Part shown: positions 16,914-42,369 of the stretch, piece by piece
How positions within the stretch are numbered: position 1 is the stretch's first letter
How the letters are laid out: each line of letters begins with the position of its first letter
DNA from: an uncultured Syntrophaceae bacterium
GTDB lineage: Bacteria > Desulfobacterota > Syntrophia > Syntrophales > UBA2192
Assembly (NCBI GenBank): GCA_964429555.1
Contig: CAYSDD010000002.1
Coordinates: 1-46,710 of the forward strand
DNA: 46,710 bases
Reading direction: 5' to 3'
Translations under genes and position numbers: made by a program
The notes under the pieces: model-generated
Database searches by the model: none
What the model saw: the letters and a program-made list of their open reading frames with translations, nothing else
Told to the model about the DNA's origin: nothing

Positions 16914-17600
16914 TCAGTCCCCGCGGGGCCGGCGGCCGCGGTGGTCCTCGTCCTGGATGGCCTGGAACTCACGGTCTGCGATCTCCAGGAGGCCCGCCAG
17001 GGCCGCCAGGCGGCGCCGCGTGGAGGCCGGCATGGCCCGCACGGACTTGTACTGGATGTCGTGCTCGATCTCGGCCCAGGCGTGCTGCAGGATCGTCCGG
17101 ACCTGGATCTCGGCGACGAGCCCCCGGAAGCCCTCCCGGTCGGGCCGGTCGGTCTCCTCCGGCGGCAGCTCCACCAGGTAGTGCACGCTCTGATACCCGA
17201 ACCGCCCGGAGGCCTGGAGCGTCTCCGACTTGTTGTCCCTCTCGAGCACGAAGAACCGCTCCCGGATGACGGCATCGATCTCGGACACGGTCCGGGGAAA
17301 GAACGTGATGACCCGCACGCCGGCCAGGTCCGTCACCCACCGCAGGGGGTCCTCGACGGCCATCGAGGTCCTCTTCGCGGCCAGAATCCGAAGGATCTTC
17401 CTCTCCACGTTCTCCGGCGTCTTGGCCCGCGCCTCGATGGAGTGAATCCGGATGGAACGCTGCGCAATGCGCTCCAGGAGATCCTGGCGGATGATTCGGC
17501 AGAACGCCTCGTAGGCGGGCCGCAGCGACGCATAGCGCTGCAGGGCCCCGGAGAGGCGGGTTTCGGCCATCCCCGCGTGCATGCTCTTCAGGCTCCTCAT
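16914..17600 (-). CDS. Small RelA/SpoT-domain protein (small alarmone synthetase-like nucleotide pyrophosphokinase)
   Basis: DLAGVRVITFF, GYQSVHYLV and EIQVRTILQHAWAEIEHD synthetase motifs. ATG 17600 overlaps the ATPase stop as ATGA. No hydrolase (HD) domain. Confidence 0.8.
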   Translation of the reverse strand: MRSLKSMHAGMAETRLSGALQRYASLRPAYEAFCRIIRQDLLERIAQRSIRIHSIEARAKTPENVERKILRILAAKRTSMAVEDPLRWVTDLAGVRVITFFPRTVSEIDAVIRERFFVLERDNKSETLQASGRFGYQSVHYLVELPPEETDRPDREGFRGLVAEIQVRTILQHAWAEIEHDIQYKSVRAMPASTRRRLAALAGLLEIADREFQAIQDEDHRGRRPRGD

Positions 17601-20362: not shown

Positions 20363-20596
20363 CTTCTCCTCGGGGGCAGACGGCTTGCGGATACGGGGTT
20401 GCCGGTCTCGAACGACGGGCCTGGACGCGTCGGGGATTCCCCGGTAGCGGATGCCGGGGTCACGGGGGGCGGCAGAGAGCCCGGGCCCGGATACATGTCA
20501 GGCCGCAATCCGACGTCCGTCTGATGGCGGCCCGACCATCGGCAGATCACCTCCGGAATCGCGCTTCCGGACCCGTTTCCGTTCACTCGTTTCGAC

Positions 20597-28712: not shown

Positions 28713-29300
28713 TCAGAGGTTGATCACCCGGCCCGACGTCATGAGGGCCGTGACGATCTCGTGCATGTTGGAGACCTTGCCGACCCGGAGCTTCTCCTTG
28801 ATGCCGAAGAAGGCCAGGCAGGTGCCGCAGGAGAGGATCTCGACTCCCTCCCTGTCCAGGAGCGCCAGGCTCTCGAGGACGTCGGAACCCTCGGTGGTGA
28901 GAAAGACCCCTCCGTTGATGAAGATCACCTTGTCCGGTCTCGGCTGGGAATCCCAGAGCGTGTTGAGAAAGGCCTTCATGAGGATCGCGCCCAATTCGTC
29001 GGAGCCCTTGCCGAAGACGTCGGTCGTGATGCAGACCACGGTCGGTCCCTCCGCGGCTCCGGCCTGCGCCGCGAGGCTGCAGCCCGCCTGCTTCGTGATG
29101 GTGAGGGCATAGGCGCCCTCCTTCTCCGCCACCGTGACCTCGCAGCCCCGGCTGGCCGCAAACCGCTTCACGTTCTCCCGGCTCTCGGGGCTGTCGACGA
29201 GGACCGTCACGGTCCCTTCGGGAATGGCCTCCAGGGCTTTCTTGGTGTTGATCACGGGCTGCGGGCAGGCAAGCCCCCGGCAATCGATTTCCCTCGTCAT
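28713..29300 (-). CDS. yedF: Sulfurtransferase-like selenium metabolism protein YedF (TusA-like N-domain plus DsrE-like C-domain)
   Basis: MTREIDCRGLACPQPV... preceded by AAAGGAGGA with a 9-nt spacer. C-terminal LSCGTCL...VSNM typical of YedF. Confidence 0.85.
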   Translation of the reverse strand: MTREIDCRGLACPQPVINTKKALEAIPEGTVTVLVDSPESRENVKRFAASRGCEVTVAEKEGAYALTITKQAGCSLAAQAGAAEGPTVVCITTDVFGKGSDELGAILMKAFLNTLWDSQPRPDKVIFINGGVFLTTEGSDVLESLALLDREGVEILSCGTCLAFFGIKEKLRVGKVSNMHEIVTALMTSGRVINL

Positions 29301-29436
29301 GGCGATGATCCTCCTTTCCCCGTCATGGACGGTCGCATTTTCCATAATCCCCTTTCATAAATCAAATGGATTCGTGGCATGTCAGCCTGCTGCGGCCCTC
29401 CCGCGGCAGGCGGGCCCACTTATAACGATTATCTAT

Positions 29437-29465
29437 TTGACAGATAGCCATTGTTTATGTATGGA
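29437..29465 (+). promoter_or_regulatory. Candidate promoter for the activase operon, overlapping an ATC-N9-GAT dyad
   Basis: TTGACA (29437-29442), 17-nt spacer, TATGGA (29460-29465). The dyad ATCTATTTGACAGAT (29431-29445) fits the LysR T-N11-A pattern. Confidence 0.45.
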
Positions 29466-29528
29466 ACCGGATCGAGTTCGGGCGGCGCGGGCCCGGGAAT
29501 GCTCCCGCCTCGGGAGGGTGAACAGGCG

Positions 29529-30275
29529 ATGAAGGGGATCGGGCTGGACATCGGTTCACGGACCATCAAGCTCGTCGTCTGCGAAAACGGCAGCATGACG
29601 ATGAAGCGCAAAGAGGTGAACACCTACGACCCCCTCACCCTGTGCCGGGAGATGCTGAATGGCTTTGAGGCAGAGCGTATCATCGCGACGGGCTACGGGC
29701 GCCATCTGCTCAAAGGATATCTCCAGTGCGAAACGATCAGTGAGATCAAGGCCTTCGCACTGGGAGCCCTTGCCCTCTGCGGCTCCTGCCGGACGGTCCT
29801 GGACATCGGCGGCCAGGACACGAAGGCCATCTCCCTGGACGAAAACGGGAGAATCCTCAAATTCCAGATGAACGACAAGTGCGCCGCCGGGACCGGGCGC
29901 TTCCTCGAGGTCATGGCCACGGCGCTCGGGCTTTCCCTGGAGGATTTCATGGCGGCGGCGGCCGCCGCCGAAGAACCCGAGTCGGTCAGCAGCATGTGCG
30001 CGGTCTTCGCCGAGTCGGAGGTGATCTCCATGATCGCCCGCGGTGCGCCGCGGCCGGGGATCGCACGGGGAATCCACCAATCCGTCGCCCGGCGGGCCGT
30101 GTCCCTGCTCGAGAAGGTATCGATTCGCGAGGACATCCTGTTTGCCGGCGGCGTCGCGCTGAACCCCTGCATGCGCGCGCAGATCGAGGAGCATCTCGGC
30201 CGGCGCGTCATGGTGCCCGGTGACCCGCAGATCGTGGGCGCTCTGGGGTGCGCGCTGATGGCCTCGGAGGCATGA
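29529..30275 (+). CDS. BadF/BadG/BcrA/BcrD-type ATPase: (R)-2-hydroxyacyl-CoA dehydratase-type activase
   Basis: MKGIGLDIGSRTIKLVV, LDIGGQDTKAI, NDKCAAGTGRFLE, MCAVFAESEVIS, FAGGVALNP. Confidence 0.9.
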   Translation: MKGIGLDIGSRTIKLVVCENGSMTMKRKEVNTYDPLTLCREMLNGFEAERIIATGYGRHLLKGYLQCETISEIKAFALGALALCGSCRTVLDIGGQDTKAISLDENGRILKFQMNDKCAAGTGRFLEVMATALGLSLEDFMAAAAAAEEPESVSSMCAVFAESEVISMIARGAPRPGIARGIHQSVARRAVSLLEKVSIREDILFAGGVALNPCMRAQIEEHLGRRVMVPGDPQIVGALGCALMASEA

Positions 30276-30281
30276 AGCAGC

Positions 30282-31490
30282 ATGGCTAATCAGCACTCGG
30301 CACACGAGAAACAGCGGATCCCGTCGGGCCCCGCGAGTTCGCAGGCGGAACCCCTCCTGTGTGACGGCTTCCACGCCGACCCCGCCGGACGCATCCTCAG
30401 CTGCATCCTGTCGAAGCGGGAACAGGGTTCACCCGTCATCGGCCTGTACTGCGGGTACGCCCCTCTGGAGCTGGTCCGGGCCATGGGCGCCGTGCCCGCC
30501 TTCCTCTGCGCCGCCTCGGGCCGGACGATCCCCGCCGCCGAGGCGGTCCTTCCCGCCAATCTCTGCCCGCTGATCAAGTCGAGTTTCGGGTTCATCCGGA
30601 CGAAATCGTGCCCCCTCTACGAGCTTGCCGACGCCGTCATCGGCGAGACGACCTGCGACGGGAAGAAAAAGATGTTCGAGCTGATCGCCCCGCTCAAGCC
30701 GACCCACGTCATGGATCTTCCCTACAGGCCCGATGAGGAAGGGACCCTCGCACGCTGGACGCAGATGGTCCGCAAGCTCAAGAGATTCCTCGAGGAAACC
30801 TTCGCTCGTGCGATCCCGGAGGAACGGATCGAGGCCGAGATCCGGGAAACGAACGCGAAATGCCGGCTCATCGACCGCGTCTTCGATTACGCCGCCCTGG
30901 CGCGGCCGGCCATCCACTGGAGCGAACTGCTCGATGTGATCGGGTTCGAGCCCCTCACCGGCTGCGAGGAATTCCGCCGGTTCGTGGAGCCCGCGCTGGA
31001 ACGGCTCGAGGCCCGCGCCGTTCGCGGCATCGGTTTCGGGCGGCCCGGCGCGCCGCGCGTTCTGGTCAGCGGCTGCCCGATCGGGGGGGAAGCGAAAAAG
31101 GTCCTGCGCCTCATCGAAGAGGCGGGGGGCGTCGTCGTCGCCATGGAGGGATGCAGCGGCATGAAGGGATATTCCATCCGAATCGACGAGGGGACCGGCG
31201 ACCCGCTCGGGGCCGTGGCCGCGGCAACCCTGAAGATCCCCTGCTCCTGCATGACGCCCAACCGGGGGCGGTTCGACGCCCTCGACGAGATGATCGCCCG
31301 GTACCGGCCGGATGCCGTCATCGACGTCATTCTTCAGGCCTGCCACACCTACAACATCGAGTCCCACCGGATCGGGCGGCACATCCGCGACCGGCACGGG
31401 CTGCCCTTTCTGAAAGTCGAGACGGACTATTCCGAATCCGACATCGAGCCGCTGCGCACCCGCATCGAGGCCCTGCTCGAGAGCTGCTGA
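30282..31490 (+). CDS. 2-hydroxyacyl-CoA dehydratase / BcrB-superfamily protein, single-subunit (double-cubane-cluster reductase-like)
   Basis: 402 aa. GLYCGYAPLELVRAMGAVP, CPLIKSSFG, ETTCDGKKKMFE, SGCPIGG, ACHTYN. Only one large subunit is paired with the activase. Confidence 0.8.
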   Translation: MANQHSAHEKQRIPSGPASSQAEPLLCDGFHADPAGRILSCILSKREQGSPVIGLYCGYAPLELVRAMGAVPAFLCAASGRTIPAAEAVLPANLCPLIKSSFGFIRTKSCPLYELADAVIGETTCDGKKKMFELIAPLKPTHVMDLPYRPDEEGTLARWTQMVRKLKRFLEETFARAIPEERIEAEIRETNAKCRLIDRVFDYAALARPAIHWSELLDVIGFEPLTGCEEFRRFVEPALERLEARAVRGIGFGRPGAPRVLVSGCPIGGEAKKVLRLIEEAGGVVVAMEGCSGMKGYSIRIDEGTGDPLGAVAAATLKIPCSCMTPNRGRFDALDEMIARYRPDAVIDVILQACHTYNIESHRIGRHIRDRHGLPFLKVETDYSESDIEPLRTRIEALLESC

Positions 31491-31511
31491 GCGCCCTGTG
31501 CTTCCGAAGGC

Positions 31512-31811
31512 TCAGTCGAGGGCCGTCACTTCGCCCGGAGGGAATCCCCCCTTCTCGAGCCTCTCCCGGATCGTTTCGATGCTCGTCCTTTTGTCGTCGA
31601 AGGTGACCGTCGCCTCTCGGGTGAAGGCGTTGACGTCATGCTTCACCACGCCCGGGGTCGTCCGGAGGATGAAGTTGACCTGCGGCACCGTGGAGGGGCA
31701 GTCGCAGGCCTCGATCTTGAGCCGGATGGTCTTTTCGGCCGCAGAGGCGTCCGGCGCCGCGGCGAGGGCCGTGAGTGCGAGCAGGACGGTGAGAACGTGC
31801 AGCGTCTTCAT
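31512..31811 (-). CDS. Secreted HMA (heavy-metal-associated)-like domain protein with CxC in place of CxxC
   Basis: 99 aa. Signal peptide MKTLHVLTVLLALTALAAAPDASA. IRLKIEACDCPSTVPQV...GVVKHDV...ATVTFD. ATGA overlap with the upstream gene. Confidence 0.65.
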   Translation of the reverse strand: MKTLHVLTVLLALTALAAAPDASAAEKTIRLKIEACDCPSTVPQVNFILRTTPGVVKHDVNAFTREATVTFDDKRTSIETIRERLEKGGFPPGEVTALD

Positions 31812-32173
31812 CGCGGACCTCCCGTTGATTCCGATTGCTCCGCAGAACAGTCGCGGATGAAACGAGCCAGTTCCTCTTCGTTCAACCCCGCCCCGCGCCT
31901 GCCGTCCAGGCGCCGGGCGACGGCACCCTTGCGAAAGAACAGCACGGTCGGAAAGATCTCGATCGCCCAGGGGTCCGACAGCGTGTCCCCGTCGTCCTGC
32001 ACGAGAGCGAACCGCCCCGGGTCCCGTGCGTGATTCTCGAACACGGGCAGGAACCTGCGGCTGTAGGGGCACCAGGAGGCGTAGAACAGGGCGAACAGCT
32101 CGTCTCGGGAGCGCAGGAGCGCCTCGAGATCCGGCGCGCTCGTAACCCGGGGGATTTGGGATGTTTCTTCCAT
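31808..32173 (-). CDS. Thioredoxin-fold protein with monothiol WCPYS motif
   Basis: SD AAAGGAG 8 nt before ATG 32173. LFALFYASWCPYSRRFLPVF...IFPTVLFF. Confidence 0.7.
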   Translation of the reverse strand: MEETSQIPRVTSAPDLEALLRSRDELFALFYASWCPYSRRFLPVFENHARDPGRFALVQDDGDTLSDPWAIEIFPTVLFFRKGAVARRLDGRRGAGLNEEELARFIRDCSAEQSESTGGPR

Positions 32174-32236
32174 CACGCGTTCTCCTTTCCTGGGCTGTCG
32201 AGCCCGTTCGTCCGGGGCCCGCGACGGGGGTCGGCA

Positions 32237-33457
32237 TCACCCCTGAGCGATTCCCAGCACGTCCCGGCAGAGGATCTGCAGGTCACGAAGCTCGGCCCGC
32301 TGCCGGGGCTCGAGTCGCTTGGGTACCCCGGCGGCCCCGAGGGACCGGTTGATTCGCCGGGCCGCGGCGAAGAGGTGCGCGAGGGCCTCCGGGATGTTGA
32401 AATCCCGATGCATCGCCTCGCGGAACCGCACCCCGAGTTCGGTCGTGGCCCCCGCAACCCGGGCTTCTCCTTCCCCGTCCGCCCCGCAGCGCCCGGCAAG
32501 GCCGGAGAGCCGATCGAGGGCCGCGGCCGCCTCCCCGAGCCGCCGCTCCGTCAAGTCCACGGGTCGACGGTAATGCGTCGAGAGGAGGAACAGCCGGATC
32601 GCCCCCGGCCGATGATGCCGGAGCAGGTCGCGGATCCGTCCGCCCCGGTCCTCGGATTTTGAAAGCTTCCTCCCCTTGAGCGTCACCAGTTCGTGATGGA
32701 GCCAGTACCGGGCGAGGTCCGTCCCGTCGAGGCTGCGCGAAAGGGCCCTCTCGTTTTCATGATGGGGAAAGATCAGGTCCCGGCCTCCGCCGTGGATATC
32801 GAACAGGCTGCCCAGGTGCCCGCGGCTCATGGCAACGCATTCGATGTGCCACCCCGGCCGGCCTCTCCCCCAGGGGCTCTCCCAGGCGACCGCATCCCCT
32901 TCGGCCCTCTTCCAGAGGGCGAAGTCCCGCCCGTCCTCCTTGGGGCCGCCCGGTCCCGACCGCAGCCCCGCATCGACGCCCGCGGCGTCCGCGAGGCGAC
33001 CGTAGTCGCCCCGCAGGCGGACCCGGAAGTAGACGCCGTCCTCGCGCACGTAGGCCTGCCCGTCGTCGATGAGCCTCGCGATCGCCTCGAGGATCGGCCC
33101 GATCCGTTCCGTCACGCGCGGCTCGAAATCGGGTGCGAGGACCCCGAGGGCGGCCATGTCCTCCCGGTACGAGCGGATGTAGCGGTCGGCGAGATCCCCG
33201 GCTGCGATCCGCTCGGTTCCCGCCCGTGCGAGGATCTTGTCGTCGAGATCCGTGAAGTTCCGCACGTACCGGACGGCATACCCCTCGAACCGCAGGAAGC
33301 GGACGACCACATCGAAAAAGACCGCCGACCGGGCGTGGCCGACGTGGGCGTGGTCATAGACCGTGGGCCCGCAGACGTAGATTCCGATATGCCCCGGCCG
33401 GATCGGGACAAACGGCTCGAGCGACCCCGTCAGGGTGTTCCAGAGACGCAGCGGCAC
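32237..33457 (-). CDS. cysS: Cysteine--tRNA ligase family protein lacking the C-terminal anticodon-binding module (406 aa)
   Basis: [17 protein letters not shown] (HIGH), [23 protein letters not shown] (Zn ligands), KLSKS. Ends about 50 aa after [12 protein letters not shown], where E. coli CysRS continues for roughly 60 more residues. GTG start 4 nt after the selB stop, with GAGGGAG as SD. Confidence 0.85.
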
Positions 33458-33461
33458 CGCC

Positions 33462-35390
33462 CTACTCCCTCAGCACGCGCTCGTTGCCGCGGCGCTCGGT
33501 GAACCCGATCGCGTCGAGATGCTCGAGAAGGGGCAGGCCGATCGTGCGGCCGCACCCGAGGACCGGGTTGCAGTCCGCGGGCGTGAAGCGACCCTGTTTT
33601 GCAATCCAGGCGCGGATGCGGTCCTTGGCCGTTTCCAGGCCCCGCCGCGAAATGTAGCGCTCGCCGCCCAGCATCACGACGTGTCTCTTCGAGACCAGGT
33701 GTCCGAGGAGGCGCCTGACCTTCGGCTTCTCGTCCGGGAGACCCAGGGCCGCGCTGATCACGGCGACCGTGACGGTGACGGTGCCCGCGCGCTCGACCGC
33801 CTCGAGCACGCGCGCGAGCAGGGGATCCCGAAGGGATCCCAATCTCCGGTGCATCTCCGAAAGAGCATACCCTCCGTTGACGGACGCCAGGACCCCCTCG
33901 CGGACCAGCTCCCCGAGCAGGAAATCCAGGGCCCCGGGCTCCAGGTTCCAGGGGATCGATGCGGCGATGTGCGACTTGCTGATCTGATCGCGCAGGGTGT
34001 CCTCGGCAAGCGTCCGTTCGACGGCCTCCGCGATCTTGCGCTTGGCCTCCTGCGCGGTTTCCGCCGAAAGGAAGGAGCCGGCGTCGAGGGGAACGAGGAA
34101 CCCCGCCTCGCTCTGCCTTTTCAGCACGTTCTCGAAGACGGCGCGATCCAGTCCCGTGGATCGGCTCAGCCCCTCCGCGGTCAGTACGGCGGCGGGCTGC
34201 GCGGCGGCGGCGGCCTTCACGATCCGCCCCGGATCGCCCGTTTGCAGCCCGGTCAAGTAGGCAAGGGTCCTCTCCGCACGCGCCCGCCGGAACTTGACCC
34301 TCGTTGTCTCGAGGATCGTGCCGCCGCCGAGCACGGAAGGGCTGTTCATGGGCGTCATGATGCATCGATCCCGGGGAGCCGCACCGAGCGGTGCCGTGAG
34401 CCGGAATTGCACCAATCCCCTCTGCCCGGGGACGAGTTCCTCCCGGCCCATGATCACCGCCAGAGCCGACCCGACTGCACTGCCGACGTGCACCTTGACC
34501 CTCTGGCCGCTGCGGAGGGGCTGCCCGGAAAGGCGGCACAGCTCCAGCTCGACATTCAGGTAGGCGGCCGCCTCGAGGCACCCCGGCTCCGAGAGGACCA
34601 TTCCCCGGGCGATTTCCCCCGCCCCGACCCCCTGCAGGTTGATCCCGACCCGAAGGCCGGCGGAGGCGGACTCCACGGCGTTGTGATGGGACTCCAGAGA
34701 CCGCACGCGGACCGTCTTCCCGCCCGGGACGATCTCGAGCCGGTCTCCCGCCCGCACGGTGCCCGACAGGATCGTCCCGCTCACCACGGTGCCCAGGCCC
34801 TGGAAGATTCGAACCTGGTCGACGAACATCCGGAAGGGTTTCGAGGAGGCCTTGCTCCGGATCCCCGCCGCGGCCATCCCGTCCAGGACCGCCAGGACTT
34901 CATCCCGGCCCCGCCCGTCGATGCCGGAAAACGGGATGACCGGCCCGTTTTCGAGGAACGACCCCGCCGCGAGTTCCTCGATGTCCAGGGCGGCCATTTC
35001 CAGGGTCTCCCGGTCGACCAGGTCGGCCTTTGTCAGCACGGCGAAGCCGGCCGTGACGCCGAAGAAGCGCAGGATCTCCAGGTGCTCCCGCGTCTGGGGC
35101 ATGACCCCGTCGTCGGCCGCCACCGCCAGGATCGCCGCATCGACGGCGCTCAGCCCCCGGATGGTGTTCTTCATGAAATCCCGGTGGCCGGGCACGTCGA
35201 CCAGGCTGACCCGCAGGCCCGACGGCAGCACGAGCGGGGCGATGCCGAACTCGATGGAGAGGCCCCGGGCCTTTTCGACCTGCATCCGGTCCGTGTCGAC
35301 GCCCGTCAGGGCGGCGACCAGCGTCGTCTTGCCGTGGTCGACATGCCCGGCGATGCCGACCGTGTAATGTCTCTGCATGATTGCGCCCAT
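33462..35390 (-). CDS. selB: Selenocysteine-specific elongation factor SelB family
   Basis: 642 aa. GHVDHGKTTL, DVPGHRDF, TKADL. C-terminal winged-helix region ...LLEHLDAIGFTERRGNERVL matches the E. coli SelB C-terminus. The domain II pocket motif reads FVDQVRIF instead of AIDRAF. Confidence 0.85.
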   Translation of the reverse strand: MGAIMQRHYTVGIAGHVDHGKTTLVAALTGVDTDRMQVEKARGLSIEFGIAPLVLPSGLRVSLVDVPGHRDFMKNTIRGLSAVDAAILAVAADDGVMPQTREHLEILRFFGVTAGFAVLTKADLVDRETLEMAALDIEELAAGSFLENGPVIPFSGIDGRGRDEVLAVLDGMAAAGIRSKASSKPFRMFVDQVRIFQGLGTVVSGTILSGTVRAGDRLEIVPGGKTVRVRSLESHHNAVESASAGLRVGINLQGVGAGEIARGMVLSEPGCLEAAAYLNVELELCRLSGQPLRSGQRVKVHVGSAVGSALAVIMGREELVPGQRGLVQFRLTAPLGAAPRDRCIMTPMNSPSVLGGGTILETTRVKFRRARAERTLAYLTGLQTGDPGRIVKAAAAAQPAAVLTAEGLSRSTGLDRAVFENVLKRQSEAGFLVPLDAGSFLSAETAQEAKRKIAEAVERTLAEDTLRDQISKSHIAASIPWNLEPGALDFLLGELVREGVLASVNGGYALSEMHRRLGSLRDPLLARVLEAVERAGTVTVTVAVISAALGLPDEKPKVRRLLGHLVSKRHVVMLGGERYISRRGLETAKDRIRAWIAKQGRFTPADCNPVLGCGRTIGLPLLEHLDAIGFTERRGNERVLRE

Positions 35391-35452
35391 CGACGGTCAG
35401 ATTCCTGCGGCTCTCTCCGGCACGCGGCGCCGGCCGGCCGCTTTGCATGCGA

Positions 35453-35544
35453 TGGAAGGGGCAAGGGGAATCGAACCTCCTCCTCGTTGCTGAGACGAGG
35501 CCAACGGATTTGAAGTCCGCGGGGTGCCCAGCACCATTGCCCCT
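35453..35544 (-). tRNA. selC: tRNASec-like (selC-type) tRNA, anticodon UCA, 8-bp acceptor, 4-bp bulged T stem, long variable arm, discriminator U73, encoded CCA
   Basis: Hand fold of the minus strand: AGGGGCAA UG GGUG-CUGGG-CACC CC GCGGA-CUUCAAA-UCCGU UGG CCUCGU-CUCAGCA-ACGAGG A GG(A)GG-UUCGAUU-CCCC UUGCCCCU U CCA. Anticodon at 35511-35513. Confidence 0.8.
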
Positions 35545-35848
35545 GTCCTGTGCCGTCTTCTCCCCGTCCGTGCCGCGCGTCGATCGGACGCCCCGGGGCG
35601 GCACAGGCGGGGAAGCCGCTGCGTTGCACATCGTTCTTTGCCGGATTCGTCGGGGGGAAGATCCCGTTCGCCTGCCCTTGCCGCAGGCAAACAGGACGAG
35701 GGTCTCATCTTGCAGGCGGGCAAAAGGCGGGCGGCATCAACGCGGGAACCGCACGAGTCCCCGATTGCGTCGATCAGCTCCGTAACAGTCGAATCGGCAT
35801 GTTCGTGACCATCCGGTCTTTCCGTGTCAAGGGTCTTGCGCTCATCCG

Positions 35849-35878
35849 CTATTAACGGGAAACCCTTCGGGCTGTCAA
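35849..35878 (-). promoter_or_regulatory. Candidate sigma70 promoter upstream of the tRNA(UCA)-selB operon
   Basis: Minus strand TTGACA (35878-35873), 18-nt spacer, TAATAG (35854-35849). About 300 nt upstream of the tRNA 5' end. Confidence 0.4.
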
Positions 35879-35999
35879 GTTAAAAATAACTTTTCTACAT
35901 CTCATCTATGCACAGATTGAATGTTGACGGCGGGGTCCCGGTCCGGGGGCCCGCCGCGAAGGGGCGGCGGTCGCACCCCGGCGTTTTCGCGCAGCCGGC

Positions 36000-37394
36000 T
36001 TATTCCGTCCCCCGCAGCGTGTCGAGCAGGAAGGCGCGCAGCCGGCCGTAATCGGCGGGAAGATCCACGGGCTCGCCGGTTCGCTTCTCGAGGTCCCTCA
36101 TGCTCTGCGGTACCTCGGGGGTGATCCCCAGCAGCTCGATGATCTCGTCGGGGAACTTGGCGGGGTGCGCCGTCTCGAGGCACACGCAGGGCTCTGCGAT
36201 GGGCCCGCAGCAGGCCTCCAGGTAGTGCTCGAGGCCCCGCCAGCCCACGGCCCCGTGGGGTTCCAGCAGCACCCGGTGCCGCTCCCAGACGCGCCGGATC
36301 GTTTCCTTCGTTTCCTCGTCGGAGACGCTCACGGAGAAGATGCGCCGGCGCATCTCCGCCAGGTCGGGGTAGGCGTGCACGATGCCCGTTCGGTCCACCG
36401 TGCCCCCGTAGAGCTCGAAGAACCGGGCCAGGTTGCTCGGGTGGCCCACGTTCATGGCGTTGGAGAGGCAGGCCCGCGACGGTGAGACCTTCCGGTAGAC
36501 CCCCGTCCTGAGGTAGCTGGGAAATTCGTCGTTTTCGTTGGTGGGCATGACGAGCATCCGGACGGGAAGCCCCATGCGCCGGGCGTACTCGCAGCCCAGG
36601 GCGTTGCCGAAATTCCCCGAGGGGACGGAGAAGACGATCTCCTCGCCCGGGGCGGCCAGCTGGGCGTAGGCATAGACGTAGTAGATGCTCTGCGGCAGGA
36701 TCCGGCCGAAGTTGATGGAGTTGGCCGAAGTGAGGTTGAGCCCCGCGAGCCCCGGGTCGGCGAAGGCCTGCTTGACGAGGTTCTGGCAGTCGTCGAACTT
36801 GCCGTCCACGGACAGGGCGAGGACGTTGCCGCCGATCGTGTCGAGCTGCTTCTTCTGCATGCCGCTCACTTCGTTTCGCGGGTAGAGGATATAGACGCCG
36901 ATCCCCTCGACGCCCTTGAAGGCCTCGCCCACGGCGCTGCCCGTGTCGCCCGAGGTGGCCACGAGCACATTGAGGCGCCTGCCCGGATCGCGCAGGCGGC
37001 TCATGAGCCTCGCCATCATCCGGGCGGCGAAGTCCTTGAAGGAGGCCGTCGGCCCCCGGTCCAGGCGCATGATGTAAACGCGGTCGTGGACCCGCTCCAG
37101 GGGAACATCGAAGTTGTATGCATCGTCCACGACCTGCCGGATCGCCTCCCGGGGCAGCTCGTCCTTCAGGAACGCCTCGGCCACGAGGAGGGCCGTCTCC
37201 GGGTAGGGCCGCCCCTTGCAGGCCAGCACCTCGCTCACGGCAAGCGTCGGGATCGGCTCGGGCATGAAGAGCCCCTCGTCGGGCGCCTGGCCCCGGATCA
37301 GGGCCTCGCGGAAGGAGACCTGCCCCGTGAACGGCGTGAGGCCGCCCACCCCCTCGAGGCGGCGGTTCGTGCTGTAGTAGAGGATTTTCGTCAT
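36000..37394 (-). CDS. thrC: Threonine synthase (E. coli/yeast-type long form)
   Basis: 464 aa. VSFREALIRGQAPDEGLFMP, PTASFKDFAARMM (PLP Lys), TSGDTGSA, TSANSINFGRILPQ. Confidence 0.85.
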   Translation of the reverse strand: MTKILYYSTNRRLEGVGGLTPFTGQVSFREALIRGQAPDEGLFMPEPIPTLAVSEVLACKGRPYPETALLVAEAFLKDELPREAIRQVVDDAYNFDVPLERVHDRVYIMRLDRGPTASFKDFAARMMARLMSRLRDPGRRLNVLVATSGDTGSAVGEAFKGVEGIGVYILYPRNEVSGMQKKQLDTIGGNVLALSVDGKFDDCQNLVKQAFADPGLAGLNLTSANSINFGRILPQSIYYVYAYAQLAAPGEEIVFSVPSGNFGNALGCEYARRMGLPVRMLVMPTNENDEFPSYLRTGVYRKVSPSRACLSNAMNVGHPSNLARFFELYGGTVDRTGIVHAYPDLAEMRRRIFSVSVSDEETKETIRRVWERHRVLLEPHGAVGWRGLEHYLEACCGPIAEPCVCLETAHPAKFPDEIIELLGITPEVPQSMRDLEKRTGEPVDLPADYGRLRAFLLDTLRGTE

Positions 37395-37398
37395 GCGT

Positions 37399-38334
37399 TT
37401 ACCTCTTTGCGAGCGGTTCCGGGCGGTAGGCCCGGATGAAATCGAGAAAGATCCGGTGGTGCGCCATCAGGTCGAAGTGCCTGCGGTGAATGACGTAAAA
37501 GAAGCGCTCGACGGGGCAGCCCTCGATGGGCAGCGCGGCAAGGATCCCCGAGGCGATCTCCCTCCGGACGGCGTAGATGGAAATCACGGAAAGGCCGACG
37601 CCGGCGATGACGGCCTCCTTGACCGCCTCGGAGCTCCCCATCTCGGCAACGACCCGAAACCGGGACAGGTCCGTTTTGCCGGCCTCGGCAAGGCACCGCT
37701 CGAAGGCGTCGCGGGTGCCCGAGCCCCGCTCGCGGATCACGAAGGGCTCCTTCTCGAGCTCGCGGACACGGACGGTTTTCCTCTTCGCCCAGGGGTGCGC
37801 CGCGGGAACGGCCAGCACCATCCGGTCCCGCCAGAGCGGTTCGGCCGCCAGCTTCGCGCCGGCGGGCTCCTTGCCGATGAAGCCGATCTCGGCGCCGTTC
37901 TCCAGGACCGTCTCGATGACCTCGCTGCTGTCGGCCGCCCGCACGGCGGTCCGGATCGCGGGGAATTTCTCCCGAAACGCAGCGATCGCCGGGGGCAGGA
38001 TGTAGGTGGCCGGGATCGTGCTGGCGGCGATCCGGATGTCCCCCTCCTCGGCGGCGCGCGCCCGCATCACCCGCTCCATGGCCTCCTCGCGCAGCTTCAG
38101 GATCCGCCGGGCGTAGTCGTACACCACGCGCCCCTCGGGCGTCAGCGTGAAGGCGCGGCTCGCGCGGTTGACCACCTTCGCCCCCAGGGCGTCCTCGAGG
38201 TTGCGGATGTGCTTCGTGAGCGACGGCTGGGAGAGGTACATCCTCCTGGCCGCCCGGCTGAAGCTGCGTTCCTCGACGAGGTGCACCAGGGCCTCGAGCT
38301 GCAGCATGTTGACGTTTTTCATCTCGGCCTGCAT
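37399..38334 (-). CDS. LysR-family transcriptional regulator (selenium-cluster associated)
   Basis: 311 aa. HTH LQLEALVHLVEERSFSRAARRMYLSQPSLTKHIRNLE. Divergent from yedE. Its stop is 4 nt before the thrC ATG. Confidence 0.85.
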   Translation of the reverse strand: MQAEMKNVNMLQLEALVHLVEERSFSRAARRMYLSQPSLTKHIRNLEDALGAKVVNRASRAFTLTPEGRVVYDYARRILKLREEAMERVMRARAAEEGDIRIAASTIPATYILPPAIAAFREKFPAIRTAVRAADSSEVIETVLENGAEIGFIGKEPAGAKLAAEPLWRDRMVLAVPAAHPWAKRKTVRVRELEKEPFVIRERGSGTRDAFERCLAEAGKTDLSRFRVVAEMGSSEAVKEAVIAGVGLSVISIYAVRREIASGILAALPIEGCPVERFFYVIHRRHFDLMAHHRIFLDFIRAYRPEPLAKR

Positions 38335-38467
38335 GGCCTGTCCCTACCATGACCCTTTTCGATAATCAAGAAGCATTTATGAATTATTGGAATTGGCGTT
38401 ATTCAGAAAAGAAGGGTAATAAAAAAGCGCTTTCCTCATCCCAGACCCTGTGAAGGAGGACCCCGGT

Positions 38468-39541
38468 ATGGGCAACCCGTTTGCATCCCGCGCGGGAATC
38501 ATCGTCGTCGGCGTTGCCATCGGCATCATGGCAACGCTCCTGCAGTACTTTGGCAACCCCCCGAACATGGGCATCTGCGTGGCCTGCATGGAGCGCGACA
38601 TTGCGGGCGCCCTGGGCCTGCACCGGGCCGCCGTCGTGCAGTATCTTCGCCCCGAGATCATCGGCTTCGTGATCGGGGCCTTCCTCGCCGCCCTGCTCGC
38701 GAAGGAGTACCGGCCCCGCGGGGGGTCGGCGCCGCTCGTGCGCTTCTTTCTCGGCGTCTTCGCCATGATCGGCGCACTGGTGTTCCTGGGCTGCCCCTGG
38801 CGGGCGCTGCTGCGGCTTGCGGGGGGCGACTGGAACGCCCTCACGGGCCTCGCGGGCCTGGCGACGGGCATCGGCGTGGGCGTCGCCTTCCTCAAATCGG
38901 GCTACAGCCTGGGCCGCGCCCAGCCGCAGAAGGCGGCGTCGGGTATCCTCTTCCCCGTCTTCATGGCCGGGCTCTTCCTGCTGCTCGTCTTCCGGGTGAC
39001 CTTCGCCGAGGGCGGCCCCCTCTTTTTCAGCCAGAAGGGTCCGGGGTCGCAGTTCGCCCCCGTCTGGATGAGCCTGGGCGCCGGGGTGCTCGTCGGGGCC
39101 ATCGCCCAGCGCAGCCGGTTCTGCACCATGGGGGCCCTGCGGGACGTCATCCTGCTGAAGGATTTCCACCTCATGAGCGGCGTGGCGGGTCTGCTCGTCG
39201 CCGCCTTTGCCATGAATCTCATCCTGGGGCAGTTCAAGCCCGGTTTTGCAGGCCAGCCGATCGCCCACACGGACCATCTCTGGAATTTCCTGGGGATGGC
39301 GCTCGCGGGCCTGGCCTTCGCGCTGGCCGGCGGCTGCCCGGGCCGCCAGCTGTTCCTCTCCGGCGAGGGGGACCTCGACGCGGGCATCTTCGCCCTGGGC
39401 ATGATCGTCGGGGCCGGCGTGTCGCACAACTTCGCCATGGCCAGCTCGCCCGCCGGCGCCGCCGCCTTCGGGCCGGCCGGCGTCATCGTGGGCTTCGTCT
39501 TCTGCCTGGCCGTGGGGTTCACGATGCGGGAGAAGGCCTGA
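38468..39541 (+). CDS. yedE: YedE-family putative selenium/sulfur-compound transporter
   Basis: GAAGGAGG 8 nt before ATG 38468. GNPPNMGICVACMERDIAGALGLH, FCTMGALRD, about 9 TM segments. Confidence 0.85.
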   Translation: MGNPFASRAGIIVVGVAIGIMATLLQYFGNPPNMGICVACMERDIAGALGLHRAAVVQYLRPEIIGFVIGAFLAALLAKEYRPRGGSAPLVRFFLGVFAMIGALVFLGCPWRALLRLAGGDWNALTGLAGLATGIGVGVAFLKSGYSLGRAQPQKAASGILFPVFMAGLFLLLVFRVTFAEGGPLFFSQKGPGSQFAPVWMSLGAGVLVGAIAQRSRFCTMGALRDVILLKDFHLMSGVAGLLVAAFAMNLILGQFKPGFAGQPIAHTDHLWNFLGMALAGLAFALAGGCPGRQLFLSGEGDLDAGIFALGMIVGAGVSHNFAMASSPAGAAAFGPAGVIVGFVFCLAVGFTMREKA

Positions 39542-39590
39542 TGCAAGGACCCGGAGCCAAGAACGACCATTTCGCTGAAAGGAGACCGTC

Positions 39591-39803
39591 ATGAGCGCAA
39601 CGCGAATCGATGCCCGGGGCCTTTCCTGCCCCCAGCCCGTCGTCCTGACCAGCAGGGCCATCGAGGGCGGGGCGGAGAGCCTGGAAGTCCTCGTCGACAA
39701 CGAGGTGTCGAAGGAAAACGTGCTTCGCCTGGCGAAGCGGCACAAGATGCAGGCCTCGGTCCGTCCGGAAGGGCCCGATATTGTCATCGAAATCAAAAAG
39801 TAG
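39591..39803 (+). CDS. TusA/SirA-family sulfurtransferase-like protein
   Basis: 70 aa. IDARGLSCPQPVV motif. SD AAAGGAG. Confidence 0.85.
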   Translation: MSATRIDARGLSCPQPVVLTSRAIEGGAESLEVLVDNEVSKENVLRLAKRHKMQASVRPEGPDIVIEIKK

Positions 39804-39864
39804 TATAAGGAAACACCAACCGGGGCCTTCCCTGCGGGAAAGGCTCCGATTTGTTTAGGAAGGA

Positions 39865-40410
39865 ATGCGGAGATTCATGTTTTTCAAATCCGGCAAAAAG
39901 AACGGTTTCGAGGGCGGCGGGCTCGTCCTGTTCGAAAGCGTGGAAGAGGCCATGAGCGGCGAGCGGGCCCTGAAGGCGGGAGAATTCGAGACCCGTCTCG
40001 TGGCGCCCCCGCCCGAGCTCAGGCGGGGCTGCGATCTCGCCCTGGAGATCAACCTCGTGGAAAAGCCCGCCGTCGAGCGGGCGCTGCAGGAGCGCGAGGT
40101 CCCCTTCCTCGACATCCTGCCCATCCGGGGCGACGCGGAGCTTCTCCAGGTCGTCAAGGTCACCGACTTCGGCGAGGCCCTCATGGTCAAGGCGGGCAAC
40201 ATGAAGCTCACCTTCGACAAGGCCTCGGGCGTCGTCCTGAACATCTCGGGCGGCGGCTGCCCCGACATCCCCTACCTGCACGCCGAGATGCTGGCCAAGC
40301 CGCTGGAGCAGGCGCCGCGGCCCAAGGCCATCGGCCGCACGCTCTGCGCCCTCATGCTGGACCGCGCCTGGGAGCAGTCGCTCGAAATCCGGAAGAACGG
40401 CAACGGGTGA
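39865..40410 (+). CDS. DUF3343 (putative Se/S carrier)-like domain fused to an uncharacterised Cys-containing C-terminal domain
   Basis: N-terminal LVLFESVEEAMSGERALKAGEFETRLVAPPPELRRGCDLAL. C-terminal half has ISGGGCPDIPY and TLCALMLD. Alternative start ATG 39877. Confidence 0.65.
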   Translation: MRRFMFFKSGKKNGFEGGGLVLFESVEEAMSGERALKAGEFETRLVAPPPELRRGCDLALEINLVEKPAVERALQEREVPFLDILPIRGDAELLQVVKVTDFGEALMVKAGNMKLTFDKASGVVLNISGGGCPDIPYLHAEMLAKPLEQAPRPKAIGRTLCALMLDRAWEQSLEIRKNGNG

Positions 40411-40414
40411 GGCC

Positions 40415-41320
40415 ATGCTGCTCGTCTGCGGAACCGCCCCGCTCAAAGAGCTCCCGCTGACCGAGGGGGAGGCGGGGCTCGACGGGGACATCCTGCGCGT
40501 CGGCGGTGCCGGGATCCCCTGCACGCAGGGCACGGCGGCCCTGGTGAGCGCCGCCTGCAAGACGCTGGACTACCTGGGCCAGCCCGCGCCCCGGGTGCTG
40601 CTCGTGGGCGACGACGGCACCGGCAAGGGCAGCCGGCAGCTCTACGAGCGCCTGATCGAGGATCTGCCCCGCCTGGCCCCCCGGGTCGTCGTGCTGCACT
40701 ACATGCTGCCCGTCATGGGGCTCATGCGCAGGGTGAGCGAGTCGGCCTCCAAGGCGCCTCGGCGCCCCTTCATGATCGCCGATGCCGCGGCCATGTACGC
40801 CGCCAAGGCGGCGGGGATCGCCCGCGAGTTCGACCTCTTCACGCCGGACCTCTCGGAGCTGGCCTTCCTGGCGGACCCGCAGGCCACCCACCCGGCCTAC
40901 GTGAGCCGGCACCTCTTCGAGTCGGACAGCACGCGCATCCCCGAGATGGTCGCGGCGGCCTACGCCAACGGGAGCGCCGCCCGGACGCTCGTCGTGAAGG
41001 GCGCCACGGACCACATCGCGCAGGAGGGCAGGATCCTCGACACCCTGTCGGAGCCGGACATCCCGGCCCTCGAGGCCATCGGCGGTACGGGGGACACGAT
41101 CAGCGGCATGGTGGGGGCCCTCGTGCACGCCGGGTACGACGAGGTCACGGCGGCCCGCGTCGCCGTTCGGGCCAACCGCACGGCCGGGCTCTACGCCGGG
41201 GCCACGCCGGCCACGCGGATCCGGCAGGTCATCGAGGCCCTGCCCCGGGTCTTCGCCGATCACCTCGACGGGTGGGTGCGGCAGGCGCAAATCGAAAGAG
41301 CGGAAAGGAGCGCACCGTGA
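40415..41320 (+). CDS. Ribokinase-fold protein, YjeF C-terminal / NAD(P)HX-dehydratase (NnrD)-like
   Basis: 301 aa. LFTPDLSELAFL, LVVKGATDHIA, EAIGGTGDTISGMVGAL resemble NnrD motifs. Its stop overlaps the selD GTG (GTGA). Confidence 0.6.
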   Translation: MLLVCGTAPLKELPLTEGEAGLDGDILRVGGAGIPCTQGTAALVSAACKTLDYLGQPAPRVLLVGDDGTGKGSRQLYERLIEDLPRLAPRVVVLHYMLPVMGLMRRVSESASKAPRRPFMIADAAAMYAAKAAGIAREFDLFTPDLSELAFLADPQATHPAYVSRHLFESDSTRIPEMVAAAYANGSAARTLVVKGATDHIAQEGRILDTLSEPDIPALEAIGGTGDTISGMVGALVHAGYDEVTAARVAVRANRTAGLYAGATPATRIRQVIEALPRVFADHLDGWVRQAQIERAERSAP

Positions 41321-42369
41321 CGACGGAAAAGAAGATCCGCCTGACGGAGATGGTCCACGGGGCCGGCTGAGCGTGCAAGATCGGTCCGGAGGACCTGAGC
41401 CGAGCCCTGGAGGGGCTTCCCATCATCGCGGACCCCAACCTGATCGTCGGCCTCGAGGGCAACGAGGACGCGGGCGTCTACCGTCTGCGCGACGACCTGG
41501 CCATCATCCAGACGGTCGACTTCTTCACGCCCATCGTCGACGACCCCTACACCTTCGGGCAGATCGCCGCGACGAATTCCCTCTCCGACGTCTACGCCAT
41601 GGGCGGCCGGCCGATCACGGCCCTGAACATCATCTGCTTTCCGCCGAAGAAGCTCGACATGTCGGTCCTGCAGGCGATCCTGCGCGGCGGGCTGGACAAG
41701 ATGACGGAGGCGGGCGTCGTGCTCGTCGGGGGCCACAGCGTGGAGGACGACGAGCCGAAATACGGCCTCTCCGTGACGGGCGTCATTCACCCCGACCGGG
41801 TCCTGCGCAACCGCGGGGGCCGGCCCGGAGACAAACTGATCCTGACCAAGGCGCTCGGCACGGGCATCGTCAGCACGGCGATCAAGGGGGAGGAGGCCGA
41901 CCCGGCCCTCGTCGAGAAGGCCGTCCGGGCCATGACGACCCTGAACCGGCAGGCCGCCGAGCTGATGACGCAGATGCCCGTCATCCACGCCTGCACGGAC
42001 GTGACGGGGTTCGGCATGCTGGGGCACGCCTGCGAGATGATCGAGGGAAGCGACGTGGGGTTGACGATCGACGCCGCGGCCGTCCCCTGCTTCGAGGGGG
42101 TGCGGGAACTCGTGGAAAGCGGCTACGTGCCGGGGGGGCTCTACCGCAACAAGAACTTCCGGATGCCGATGATCGACGTCGAGCCGTCGTGCCCGGAGTG
42201 GCTGCTGGAGATCCTCTTCGACCCCCAGACCGCGGGCGGCCTGCTCATCGCCCTGCCGGCGGGGGACGCGGAAACGCTTGTCCGGCGCATGCGCGAGGCC
42301 GGGATCGGGGATGCGGCCGTGGTGGGCGAAGTGGTCGCCGCGCCGAAGGGGAAGATCATCGTCCGGTGA
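41317..42369 (+). CDS. selD: Selenide, water dikinase (selenophosphate synthetase) with in-frame UGA = selenocysteine at 41368-41370
   Basis: GTG 41317 after GGAAAGGAG. Translation VTTEKKIRLTEMVHGAG-U-ACKIGPEDL... aligns with E. coli ...[21 protein letters not shown] (UGA at the Cys17 position). Same frame as track ORF 41599..42369. 350 codons. Confidence 0.9.
41381..41398 (+). promoter_or_regulatory. Candidate SECIS hairpin 10 nt downstream of the selD UGA
   Basis: UC-GGUCC-GGA-GGACC-(U)-GA: 7 bp with a bulged U and a small apical loop. Hand fold only. Confidence 0.35.

Follow-up and report, generated by a model that had tools for sequence, protein, structure and literature searches.

Does a tRNA gene with a UCA anticodon that lies next to a gene of the SelB family have to be an ordinary selC, or can it be something that only looks like one? 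This question is raised by a 46.7-kb stretch of DNA (hereafter the window: contig CAYSDD010000002.1 of assembly GCA_964429555.1, positions 1 to 46,710) from an uncultured Syntrophaceae bacterium, for which an initial annotation, made from the sequence without database searches, had proposed a cysteine-accepting mimic of the selenocysteine (Sec) tRNA, tRNASec. Our analysis places the gene, with near certainty, in the selC* family of tRNACys genes, in one operon with genes for a SelB paralog (selB*) and a cysteinyl-tRNA synthetase (CysRS) paralog (cysS*). We further consider it probable that the product is a tRNACys(UCA) which would be charged by CysRS*, delivered by SelB* and used to place Cys at UGA codons accompanied by a selenocysteine insertion sequence (SECIS) as a back-up.

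A system of this kind has been described before. The selC* tRNACys genes specify U73 and either GCA or UCA as anticodon, and the tRNA takes a modified 8/4 structure in which A51a is bulged (Mukai et al. 2017, NAR 45:2776, PMC5389517). selB* lies downstream of selC* in Syntrophobacterales and Desulfobacterales, and a subgroup of the Desulfobacterales also has cysS*, whose product is without an anticodon-binding domain (ABD), is mutated in CP1 and always occurs alongside A1:U72 and a UCA anticodon (PMC5389517). The initial annotation had represented this work accurately, and the window gene does fit the published description, with the tRNA, a SelB paralog and an ABD-less CysRS in a single operon.

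The tRNA gene

The only tRNA that ARAGORN finds in the window lies on the minus strand (35453..35544), has 92 nt and is called tRNA-SeC (tca). With the Rfam tRNA-Sec model (RF01852), 35457..35544 (-) scores 53.7 bits, above the gathering score of 47 (E = 3.5e-08). Together with its orthologs and the covariation described below, these matches identify the gene as selC*, encoding a probable tRNACys-UCA that mimics tRNASec. Read on the minus strand, the full sequence is AGGGGCAAUGGUGCUGGGCACCCCGCGGACUUCAAAUCCGUUGGCCUCGUCUCAGCAACGAGGAGGAGGUUCGAUUCCCCUUGCCCCUUCCA. Divided into its elements, it reads AGGGGCAA-U-GGUGC-UGG-GCACC-CC-GCGGA-CUUCAAA-UCCGU-U-GG in the first half and CCUCGU-CUCAGCA-ACGAGG-A-GG-A-GG-UUCGAUU-CCCC-UUGCCCCU-U-CCA in the second. 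The elements folded by hand in the initial annotation are all present: AGGGGCAA is able to pair with UUGCCCCU over 8 bp, a bulged T arm GG(A)GG/CCCC encloses the T loop UUCGAUU, CCUCGU/ACGAGG forms a 6-bp variable arm, the anticodon UCA sits in the loop CUUCAAA in the ARAGORN and Rfam folds alike, and the discriminator U73 stands between UUGCCCCU and a genomically encoded CCA. The first pair is A1:U72, a single bulge interrupts the 7-bp anticodon helix, and the D arm consists of 5 bp and a 3-nt loop.

Set against canonical tRNASec as modeled in RF01852, the window tRNA shares the UCA anticodon, the long variable arm and the potential for an 8-bp acceptor, and it clears the Rfam threshold. It differs in having U73 where the canonical tRNA has G73, a T stem of 4 bp plus a bulge (or of 5 bp, bulged) where the canonical one is a clean 5 bp, an acceptor/T branch of 12 bp with a bulge rather than 13 bp, and a D arm of 5 bp and 3-nt loop rather than 6 bp and 4-nt loop. 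It is also genetically coupled to a CysRS gene and not to selA. The tRNA scan and the covariance model that had been proposed as checks both call a tRNA of the Sec type; its discriminator is U73 and not G73. A fold with G73 and 8/5 geometry, named at the outset as evidence against a Cys-accepting mimic, was not obtained, and both of the folds discussed below give a bulged branch of 12 bp.

The spacing of 62 nt between the tRNA gene and selB* given by the initial annotation is exact if the first ATG (35390) is the start of selB*. This start is ambiguous, as the homologs begin at the equivalent of a second ATG at 35378 (M-x-R-H-Y-T-V-G-I-A-G-H), from which the spacer would measure 74 nt.

Conservation, covariation and acceptor geometry

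We compared the window with ten other loci at which relatives of the neighboring proteins are encoded (11 loci with the window, the others being given L numbers). Each of the ten carries a 92-93-nt tRNA(UCA) directly upstream of a SelB-like gene, and U73 is found in the tRNAs of all 11 loci. At seven of the ten, an equivalent 92-nt tRNA is followed by selB* and then by a cysS* encoding an ABD-less CysRS. Across the eight cysS* loci, window included, U73 and CCA are present in 8/8 tRNAs and A1:U72 in 7/8. When the eight were aligned together with 150 nt of upstream flank, conservation began at the first base of the tRNA and ended at CCA, in loci whose CysRS* proteins share 48-81% identity. The window tRNA and that of the Desulfococcus sp. 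locus (L009) differ at 6 of 92 positions and are identical in the acceptor and T arms.

The 11-sequence alignment supports the cloverleaf directly: 99.4% of its positions to be paired are paired, and both partners have changed in six pairs, namely 1:72, one D-stem pair and two pairs each of the anticodon stem and the variable arm. Not one of 500 shuffles was as good, and slid controls reached 46-58% pairing. Because the conservation has exactly the length of the gene in divergent loci and the cloverleaf covaries, the tRNA gene is more than a chance fold.

The published A1:U72 rule does not hold at every locus. At L008 (3858-3949) the first pair is G1·U72 although cysS* adjoins, and L012 (4868-4959) has A1:U72, yet its selB* is without an adjoining cysS*. 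L011 (4886-4978), with G1:C72 and without cysS*, is in line with the rule. These two loci without cysS*, L011 and L012, share with the window the tRNA family (U73, UCA, bulged T arm), the SelB* family and selenium-related neighbors; they differ in having no dedicated CysRS beside selB*, and the G1:C72 of L011 suits a housekeeping CysRS.

The initial annotation had assigned the tRNA an 8/4 geometry. An 8-bp acceptor with a 4-bp bulged T stem is indeed possible, but the certainty was overstated, as a 7/5 fold is practically isoenergetic. The minimum-free-energy fold from ViennaRNA pairs U81 with A64 and not with A8, which leaves 7 bp in the acceptor and gives the bulged T stem 5 bp. The two folds are 0.6 kcal/mol apart (-37.4 kcal/mol for 7/5, -36.8 kcal/mol for 8/4), the pair probabilities are 0.38 for A8-U81 and 0.29 for A64-U81, and A8, A64 and U81 are invariant in 11/11 loci. 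With near-equal energies and invariant deciding bases, the sequence cannot decide between the two. In the D. biacutus tRNA, in which the geometries were fixed by mutation, efficient opal suppression required an acceptor of 8 bp and did not require the bulge (PMC5389517).

A CysRS paralog without anticodon-binding domain

The gene cysS* (32237..33457, -) starts 4 nt past the selB* stop and encodes a CysRS paralog of 406 aa without ABD, per Pfam, TIGR00435 and alignment to E. coli CysRS. The protein scores 355 bits with Pfam tRNA-synt_1e. Its TIGR00435 match covers model positions 1-377 of 466 only, and it is alignable to residues 2-369 of the 461 of E. coli CysRS; a C-terminal block of about 70 residues of full-length CysRS is missing from it in the alignment. 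PF23493 is annotated on full-length CysRS matches and on none of the short ones. The catalytic motifs HIGH (HVGH) and KMSKS (KLSKS) and the Zn ligands are invariant in the alignment.

In a neighbor-joining tree of 18 ABD-less and 32 full-length CysRS (200 bootstraps), the ABD-less proteins form one clade in 199/200 bootstraps. Within it, the window protein belongs to a subclade of 13 clusters, all metagenomic and one labeled 'Proteobacteria bacterium' (197/200), and the Desulfococcus core CysRS* form another (200/200); the window and Desulfococcus proteins are 48% identical. The CP1 segment reads M-E-A-G-A-R in full-length CysRS, P-A-V-S in Desulfococcus sp. (the published D. biacutus motif being PTVS) and T-[A/V/E]-G-F in the window's CysRS* subclade. 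In the window protein itself (residues about 165-172) it reads VD---AGL, with a 3-residue deletion. The change reported in the literature is from 'MSGA' in D. tiedjei to 'PTVS' in CysRS* (PMC5389517). All ABD-less CysRS also have W-x-H-H-[EG]-[LM]-V where the full-length ones have W-x-H-N-G-F-V.

At one of the loci compared, that of Desulfococcus multivorans (L010, 4896-7800), cysS* persists downstream of selB* only as frame-shifted fragments, and a G-to-C change in the selC* tRNA disrupts the T-stem pair beside the loop; the system is apparently decaying there. Could the window operon likewise be a decaying, non-functional relic? The L010 locus gives the idea some footing. In the window, tRNA, selB* and cysS* are all intact, codon-position GC is as in coding sequence, and CysRS* has conserved its catalytic motifs, as SelB* has its GTPase motifs. 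The acceptor and T arms of the tRNA are, moreover, invariant across distant loci. We regard decay as the least probable of the explanations considered here.

The linkage to cysS* also bears on a different proposal, in which the tRNA is a Ser-accepting or dual Ser/Cys opal suppressor akin to the allo-tRNAs, with seryl-tRNA synthetase (SerRS) reading the variable arm and CysRS* having its role elsewhere. The 6-bp variable-arm helix, backed by covariation, is what such an enzyme would need, and in allo-tRNAs U73 with a long variable arm is compatible with SerRS (PMC5389517). The allo-tRNAs (8/4 or 9/3) resemble the window tRNA in their non-canonical 12-bp acceptor/T branch and long variable arm; unlike it, they are mostly Ser acceptors with varied anticodons, unlinked to selB* or cysS* (PMC5389517). 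A Ser suppressor would leave the coupling to CysRS* unexplained, given that the order tRNA-selB*-cysS* is strictly conserved in eight loci, and the presence of cysS* correlates with A1:U72. Serine in place of the catalytic Sec or Cys of SelD would also yield an inactive enzyme. Finally, the published selD reporter required a CysRS variant (PMC5389517). We therefore hold serine charging to be unlikely, at a small probability, and favor cysteine charging by CysRS*.

The SelB paralog and its aminoacyl pocket

The gene selB* (33462..35390, -) encodes a SelB paralog of 642 aa, identified by Pfam, TIGR00475 and alignment to E. coli SelB. It has the Pfam domains GTP_EFTU, GTP_EFTU_D2, Beta-barrel_SelB and SelB-wing_3, scores 289 bits with TIGR00475 selB (cut-off 242) and is alignable over its whole length with E. 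coli SelB (5lzb), through to the winged-helix motif GR...LLE.LD.IGFT.RRGN.R at the C terminus. Its GTPase motifs are conserved. Identity is about 31% both to E. coli SelB and to a gammaproteobacterial SelB, and 41-81% to its best 120 database relatives. These 120 take in every SelB examined beside a selC*-type tRNA, also at the cysS*-less loci L010, L011 and L012. The nearest named one, at 81% identity, is from Syntrophaceae bacterium PtaB.Bin038 (L001), and none of the 120 lies on the two examined contigs of the closest metagenome-assembled genomes (MAGs). Two further candidates from a scan of a genome collection with SelB* (L002 and L003) were set aside, being a gammaproteobacterial canonical SelB and a PrfC gene; L001 was the only true relative from that scan.

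To characterize the aminoacyl pocket, we compared 127 SelB* family sequences with the Sec-binding site of A. aeolicus (Aa) SelB described by Itoh et al. (PMC4605307). Part of the site is retained: the salt bridge Asp185/Arg241 appears as D and R in 127/127 SelB*, His229 as H in 127/127 and Arg30 as R in 126/127. The stacking aromatic Aa Phe45 is I/V in 127/127. The basic site, Arg181 in E. coli (Ec) and Ser186 in Aa, is Q in 119/127, and the compensating Aa Arg198 is S/T in 126/127. Two residues past the lost basic site, where canonical SelBs have Phe, R/K is found in 113/127; this new R/K faces the same side of the strand as the lost basic position and may compensate for it. The corresponding residues of the window SelB* are 50, 192, 194 and 204. 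Judged by these alignments, the aminoacyl pocket is remodeled family-wide and SelB* is a distinct paralog. The changes give no prediction of specificity, and a preference for Cys is not readable from them.

These observations weigh on the most conventional explanation, that the gene is the genuine and sole tRNASec of its host, charged by SerRS and converted by SelA, with a canonical SelB next door and U73 as a variant of the lineage. The tRNA does pass the Rfam tRNA-Sec gathering score, receives the SeC call from ARAGORN, and has UCA and a long variable arm. It lies in a selenium island beside a SelB-family gene above the TIGR00475 cut-off, and a second selC, selB or selA is not visible within the 46.7-kb window. 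Against this stand the ABD-less CysRS paralog translationally coupled to the SelB gene, U73 itself, a SelB family whose Sec-pocket residues are replaced at Aa F45 and Ec R181, and the switch of pair 1:72 to G:C at L011, where cysS* is absent, as CysRS identity rules predict. The window gene is also orthologous to a Desulfococcus selC* whose host also possesses the full canonical selABCD set and whose tRNA functions with a variant of CysRS (PMC5389517). A sole, genuine tRNASec consequently has only a very slight probability in our estimate.

A subtler possibility keeps the CysRS* and changes its substrate: the enzyme might load free selenocysteine instead of, or besides, cysteine, giving Sec at UGA without SelA or selenophosphate. 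CysRS enzymes are poor at telling Cys from Sec. The operon is set among genes for YedE, YedF, LysR_Sec_metab, a Se/S carrier and SelD (see below), and SelB* still has the Asp-Arg pair and His of its Sec pocket, with R/K gained past the lost basic site. That Ec R181 and the stacking aromatic have been lost, on the other hand, suits relaxed rather than enhanced selenolate binding, and the published assay was read as Cys insertion, in a SelD-less strain (PMC5389517). Loading of Sec by CysRS* is thus improbable, if somewhat less so than a sole tRNASec. More specifically, the island-embedded operon might serve as a second, direct-charging route for Sec, in which CysRS* would ligate Sec (or Cys or Sec according to supply) and SelB* would deliver it to SECIS elements; this version is a shade less probable again than Sec loading as such. 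The reading in which CysRS* charges cysteine remains the one that we prefer.

A selD gene with an in-frame UGA

The candidate target of a Cys-inserting suppressor within the window is selD (41317..42369, +; GTG start at 41317; identified by TIGR00476 and translation), about 6 kb from the operon. As the initial annotation had stated, it contains UGA: an in-frame TGA at 41368-41370 falls in the catalytic motif HGAG-U-ACK (reading ...MVHGAG*ACKIGPEDL...), and the sequence past the TGA scores 383 bits with TIGR00476. An equal UGA is present in the selD directly after cysS* at L006 and in that of the selB* cluster at L011. Starting 12 nt past the UGA, a centroid fold gives a candidate SECIS apical hairpin GGUCC-GGA-GGACC (41383..41395, +), and the selD genes of L006 and L011 have comparable hairpins with G-rich loops about as far from the UGA, offset by 3 nt in register. 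Compared with shuffles, the fold of the selD hairpin is not significant (z = +1.08), and the hairpin counts only as compatible with a SECIS. A scan of the window for in-frame TGA codons with coding-like sequence on either side returned only a gene boundary at 13753; the scan missed the known site of selD at 41368 and is hence blind near gene starts, which leaves room for further UGA-containing genes in the window.

Proposed role and relation to the published system

In the mechanism that we propose, CysRS*, with its catalytic core kept, its ABD lost and its CP1 changed, would charge the tRNA with Cys whatever the UCA anticodon. SelB* would bind the resulting Cys-tRNA(UCA), and would bind SECIS hairpins through its retained C-terminal winged-helix domain, so that Cys would go in at UGA/SECIS sites where selenocysteine is the normal residue. 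The system would probably serve as a selenium-independent back-up, foremost for a Cys form of the UGA-containing SelD, since the synthesis of SelD otherwise requires SelD's own product. Such a Cys-SelD would let the synthesis of selenophosphate and Sec start or continue without available Sec-tRNA. The steps of this mechanism are of unequal standing. The sequence itself shows the gene with the features of its fold, the operon, its orthology to the published system and its linkage to the UGA-containing selD. By analogy with the near-identical published tRNA, we infer that Cys charging depends on A1:U72, that the UGA of selD is decoded and that an 8-bp acceptor is important. The binding of Cys-tRNA(UCA) and SECIS by SelB*, and the physiological role, are conjecture on our part.

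The analogy draws on the following experiments. In E. coli, the UGA of D. tiedjei selD was read by the D. biacutus tRNACys(UCA) when a D. tiedjei CysRS was supplied that had been engineered, by deletion of the ABD and alteration of CP1, to resemble CysRS*, and the G1:C72 mutant of the tRNA was a poor substrate (PMC5389517). Compared with this D. biacutus or Desulfobacterales triad, the window has a tRNA of equal length whose acceptor and T arms (A1:U72, U73, GG(A)GG/CCCC and CCA) match those of a Desulfococcus sp. locus exactly, the same gene order tRNA-selB*-cysS*, and a CysRS* of the same clade, without ABD and with an altered CP1. It differs in its host, which is of a Syntrophales/'Syntrophaceae' MAG lineage (the window SecD is 96% identical to that of a Syntrophaceae MAG and 70-77% identical to those of Syntrophales MAGs; window GC is 66.8%), in a CysRS* that falls in a separate subclade with another CP1 motif, in selB* and cysS* genes that are 4 nt apart and not overlapping, and in the thioredoxin-fold and MerP-like genes appended to the operon.

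Several points weigh against a Cys-inserting system of this form. The 8/4 geometry is not settled by the sequence, as neither thermodynamics nor covariation separates it from 7/5. U73 with a long variable arm could permit charging by SerRS, as has been stated for allo-tRNAs (PMC5389517). The native CysRS* was inactive in E. coli, and function was seen only via the engineered D. tiedjei CysRS (PMC5389517). The published 'PTVS' motif is not in the window CysRS*, although its CP1 is mutated in the broader sense. Lastly, a scan of 31300-36100 found no sigma-70-like promoter. Nevertheless, because the window matches the published description feature by feature, PTVS excepted, the interpretation is supported and is of a kind already known.

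The system and its Cys-at-UGA activity were thus published in 2017, and the basic picture is unchanged. What the window adds is, first, a Syntrophales host with all three genes, cysS* having so far been known from Desulfobacterales only, apart from possible Syntrophales or Smithella entries in the supplementary tables of PMC5389517. Later reviews likewise give cysS* as known only from Desulfobacterales, and describe the system as one for Cys-containing selenoproteins under selenium scarcity. Second, in the tree of CysRS sequences there is a well-supported sister subclade of CysRS* with a different CP1 motif. Third, the operon is part of a selenium-metabolism island, and the selD of this island contains UGA.

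If the reading is right, two machineries would work side by side on one codon context (UGA with SECIS), each having a tRNA and an elongation factor of its own and here a synthetase as well, which would be among the clearest natural cases of an orthogonal set of tRNA, aminoacyl-tRNA synthetase and elongation factor. The distribution of cysS* extends beyond the Desulfobacterales subgroup of the original description. That two CP1 sequences accompany one A1:U72 tRNA type may be useful for orthogonal Cys or Sec suppression pairs, and the recurrent linkage to UGA-selD and selenium genes sharpens the hypothesis of SelD bootstrapping when Sec-tRNA is lacking. A clostridial selC* tRNACys(GCA), described by Vargas-Rodriguez et al. 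in 2018, is reportedly also a Cys-charged tRNASec look-alike that SelB delivers to Sec codons; that system is said to have the GCA anticodon and to be without a dedicated SelB* or CysRS*.

The surrounding selenium-metabolism island

Downstream of cysS*, the operon continues with a thioredoxin-fold gene with the single-Cys motif WCPYS (31808..32176, -; Pfam Thioredoxin, 3.8e-08), homologs of which follow cysS* at L004 (62% identity) and L001 (59%). The ATG of the next gene, at 31512..31811 (-), overlaps its stop (ATGA). This gene encodes a MerP/HMA-like secreted metal-binding protein with the motif E-A-C-D-C-P (HMA, 9.5e-05; MerP TIGR02052, 1.3e-13, under the cut-off), and a homolog with 84% identity stands at the equivalent place in L004. 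The protein also has a weak match, under the cut-off, to the 'UxxU metal-binding (seleno)protein' family NF041115. A terminator scan of 31300-36100 gave matches at chance level only.

The island (28713-31490 and 37399-42369), within which the operon lies, includes a LysR regulator of selenium metabolism (37399..38343, -; NF040786 LysR_Sec_metab, 289.5 bits, cut-off 250), a gene that also adjoins selC* in L001 and L011; a YedE-family putative selenium transporter (38423..39541, +; TIGR04112, 497.5 bits, cut-off 200); a Se/S carrier-like protein of PF11823 (39865..40410, +; Pfam Se_S_carrier, 2.2e-15), with homologs in L001 and L011; and YedF, a TusA-DsrE fusion of selenium metabolism (28713..29345, -; TIGR03527, 235 bits, cut-off 110), with homologs in L005, L006 and L011. 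A carbohydrate-kinase-like protein is encoded there as well. Genes of the island recur near selB* in L001, L006 and L011, and synteny between L001 and the window runs from the Se/S-carrier gene through cysS*.

Convergent with the operon, the island also carries an activase (BcrAD_BadFG, 29448-30275, +) and a double-cubane-cluster reductase (HGD-D, 30282-31490, +), a pair identified by NF040772 (426 bits, cut-off 350) and TIGR00241 (220 bits). An HGD-D homolog adjoins selC*-selB* in 8/10 of the other loci (L004, L005 with two copies, L006-L010 and L012), mostly accompanied there by a BcrAD_BadFG activase. This recurrent linkage of the double-cubane reductase to selenium genes suggests a role in the reduction or trafficking of selenium or sulfur. 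The TGA between the two genes (30273-30275) was considered as an in-frame recoding site and rejected: these are two adjacent genes, with an ATG two codons on.

Elsewhere in the window, an Rfam nhaA-I RNA match on the minus strand (20522-20574, 44.1 bits, gathering score 37) sits a short distance upstream of a gene for a P-type cation ATPase (17597-20497, -). Between 20699 and 28284 (-), a sugar/compatible-solute cluster encodes a HAD phosphatase, a TreT-like trehalose synthase, a DUF5752 protein, a GT20 (OtsA-like) glycosyltransferase and, under the cut-off, a glucosyl-3-phosphoglycerate-synthase-like protein.

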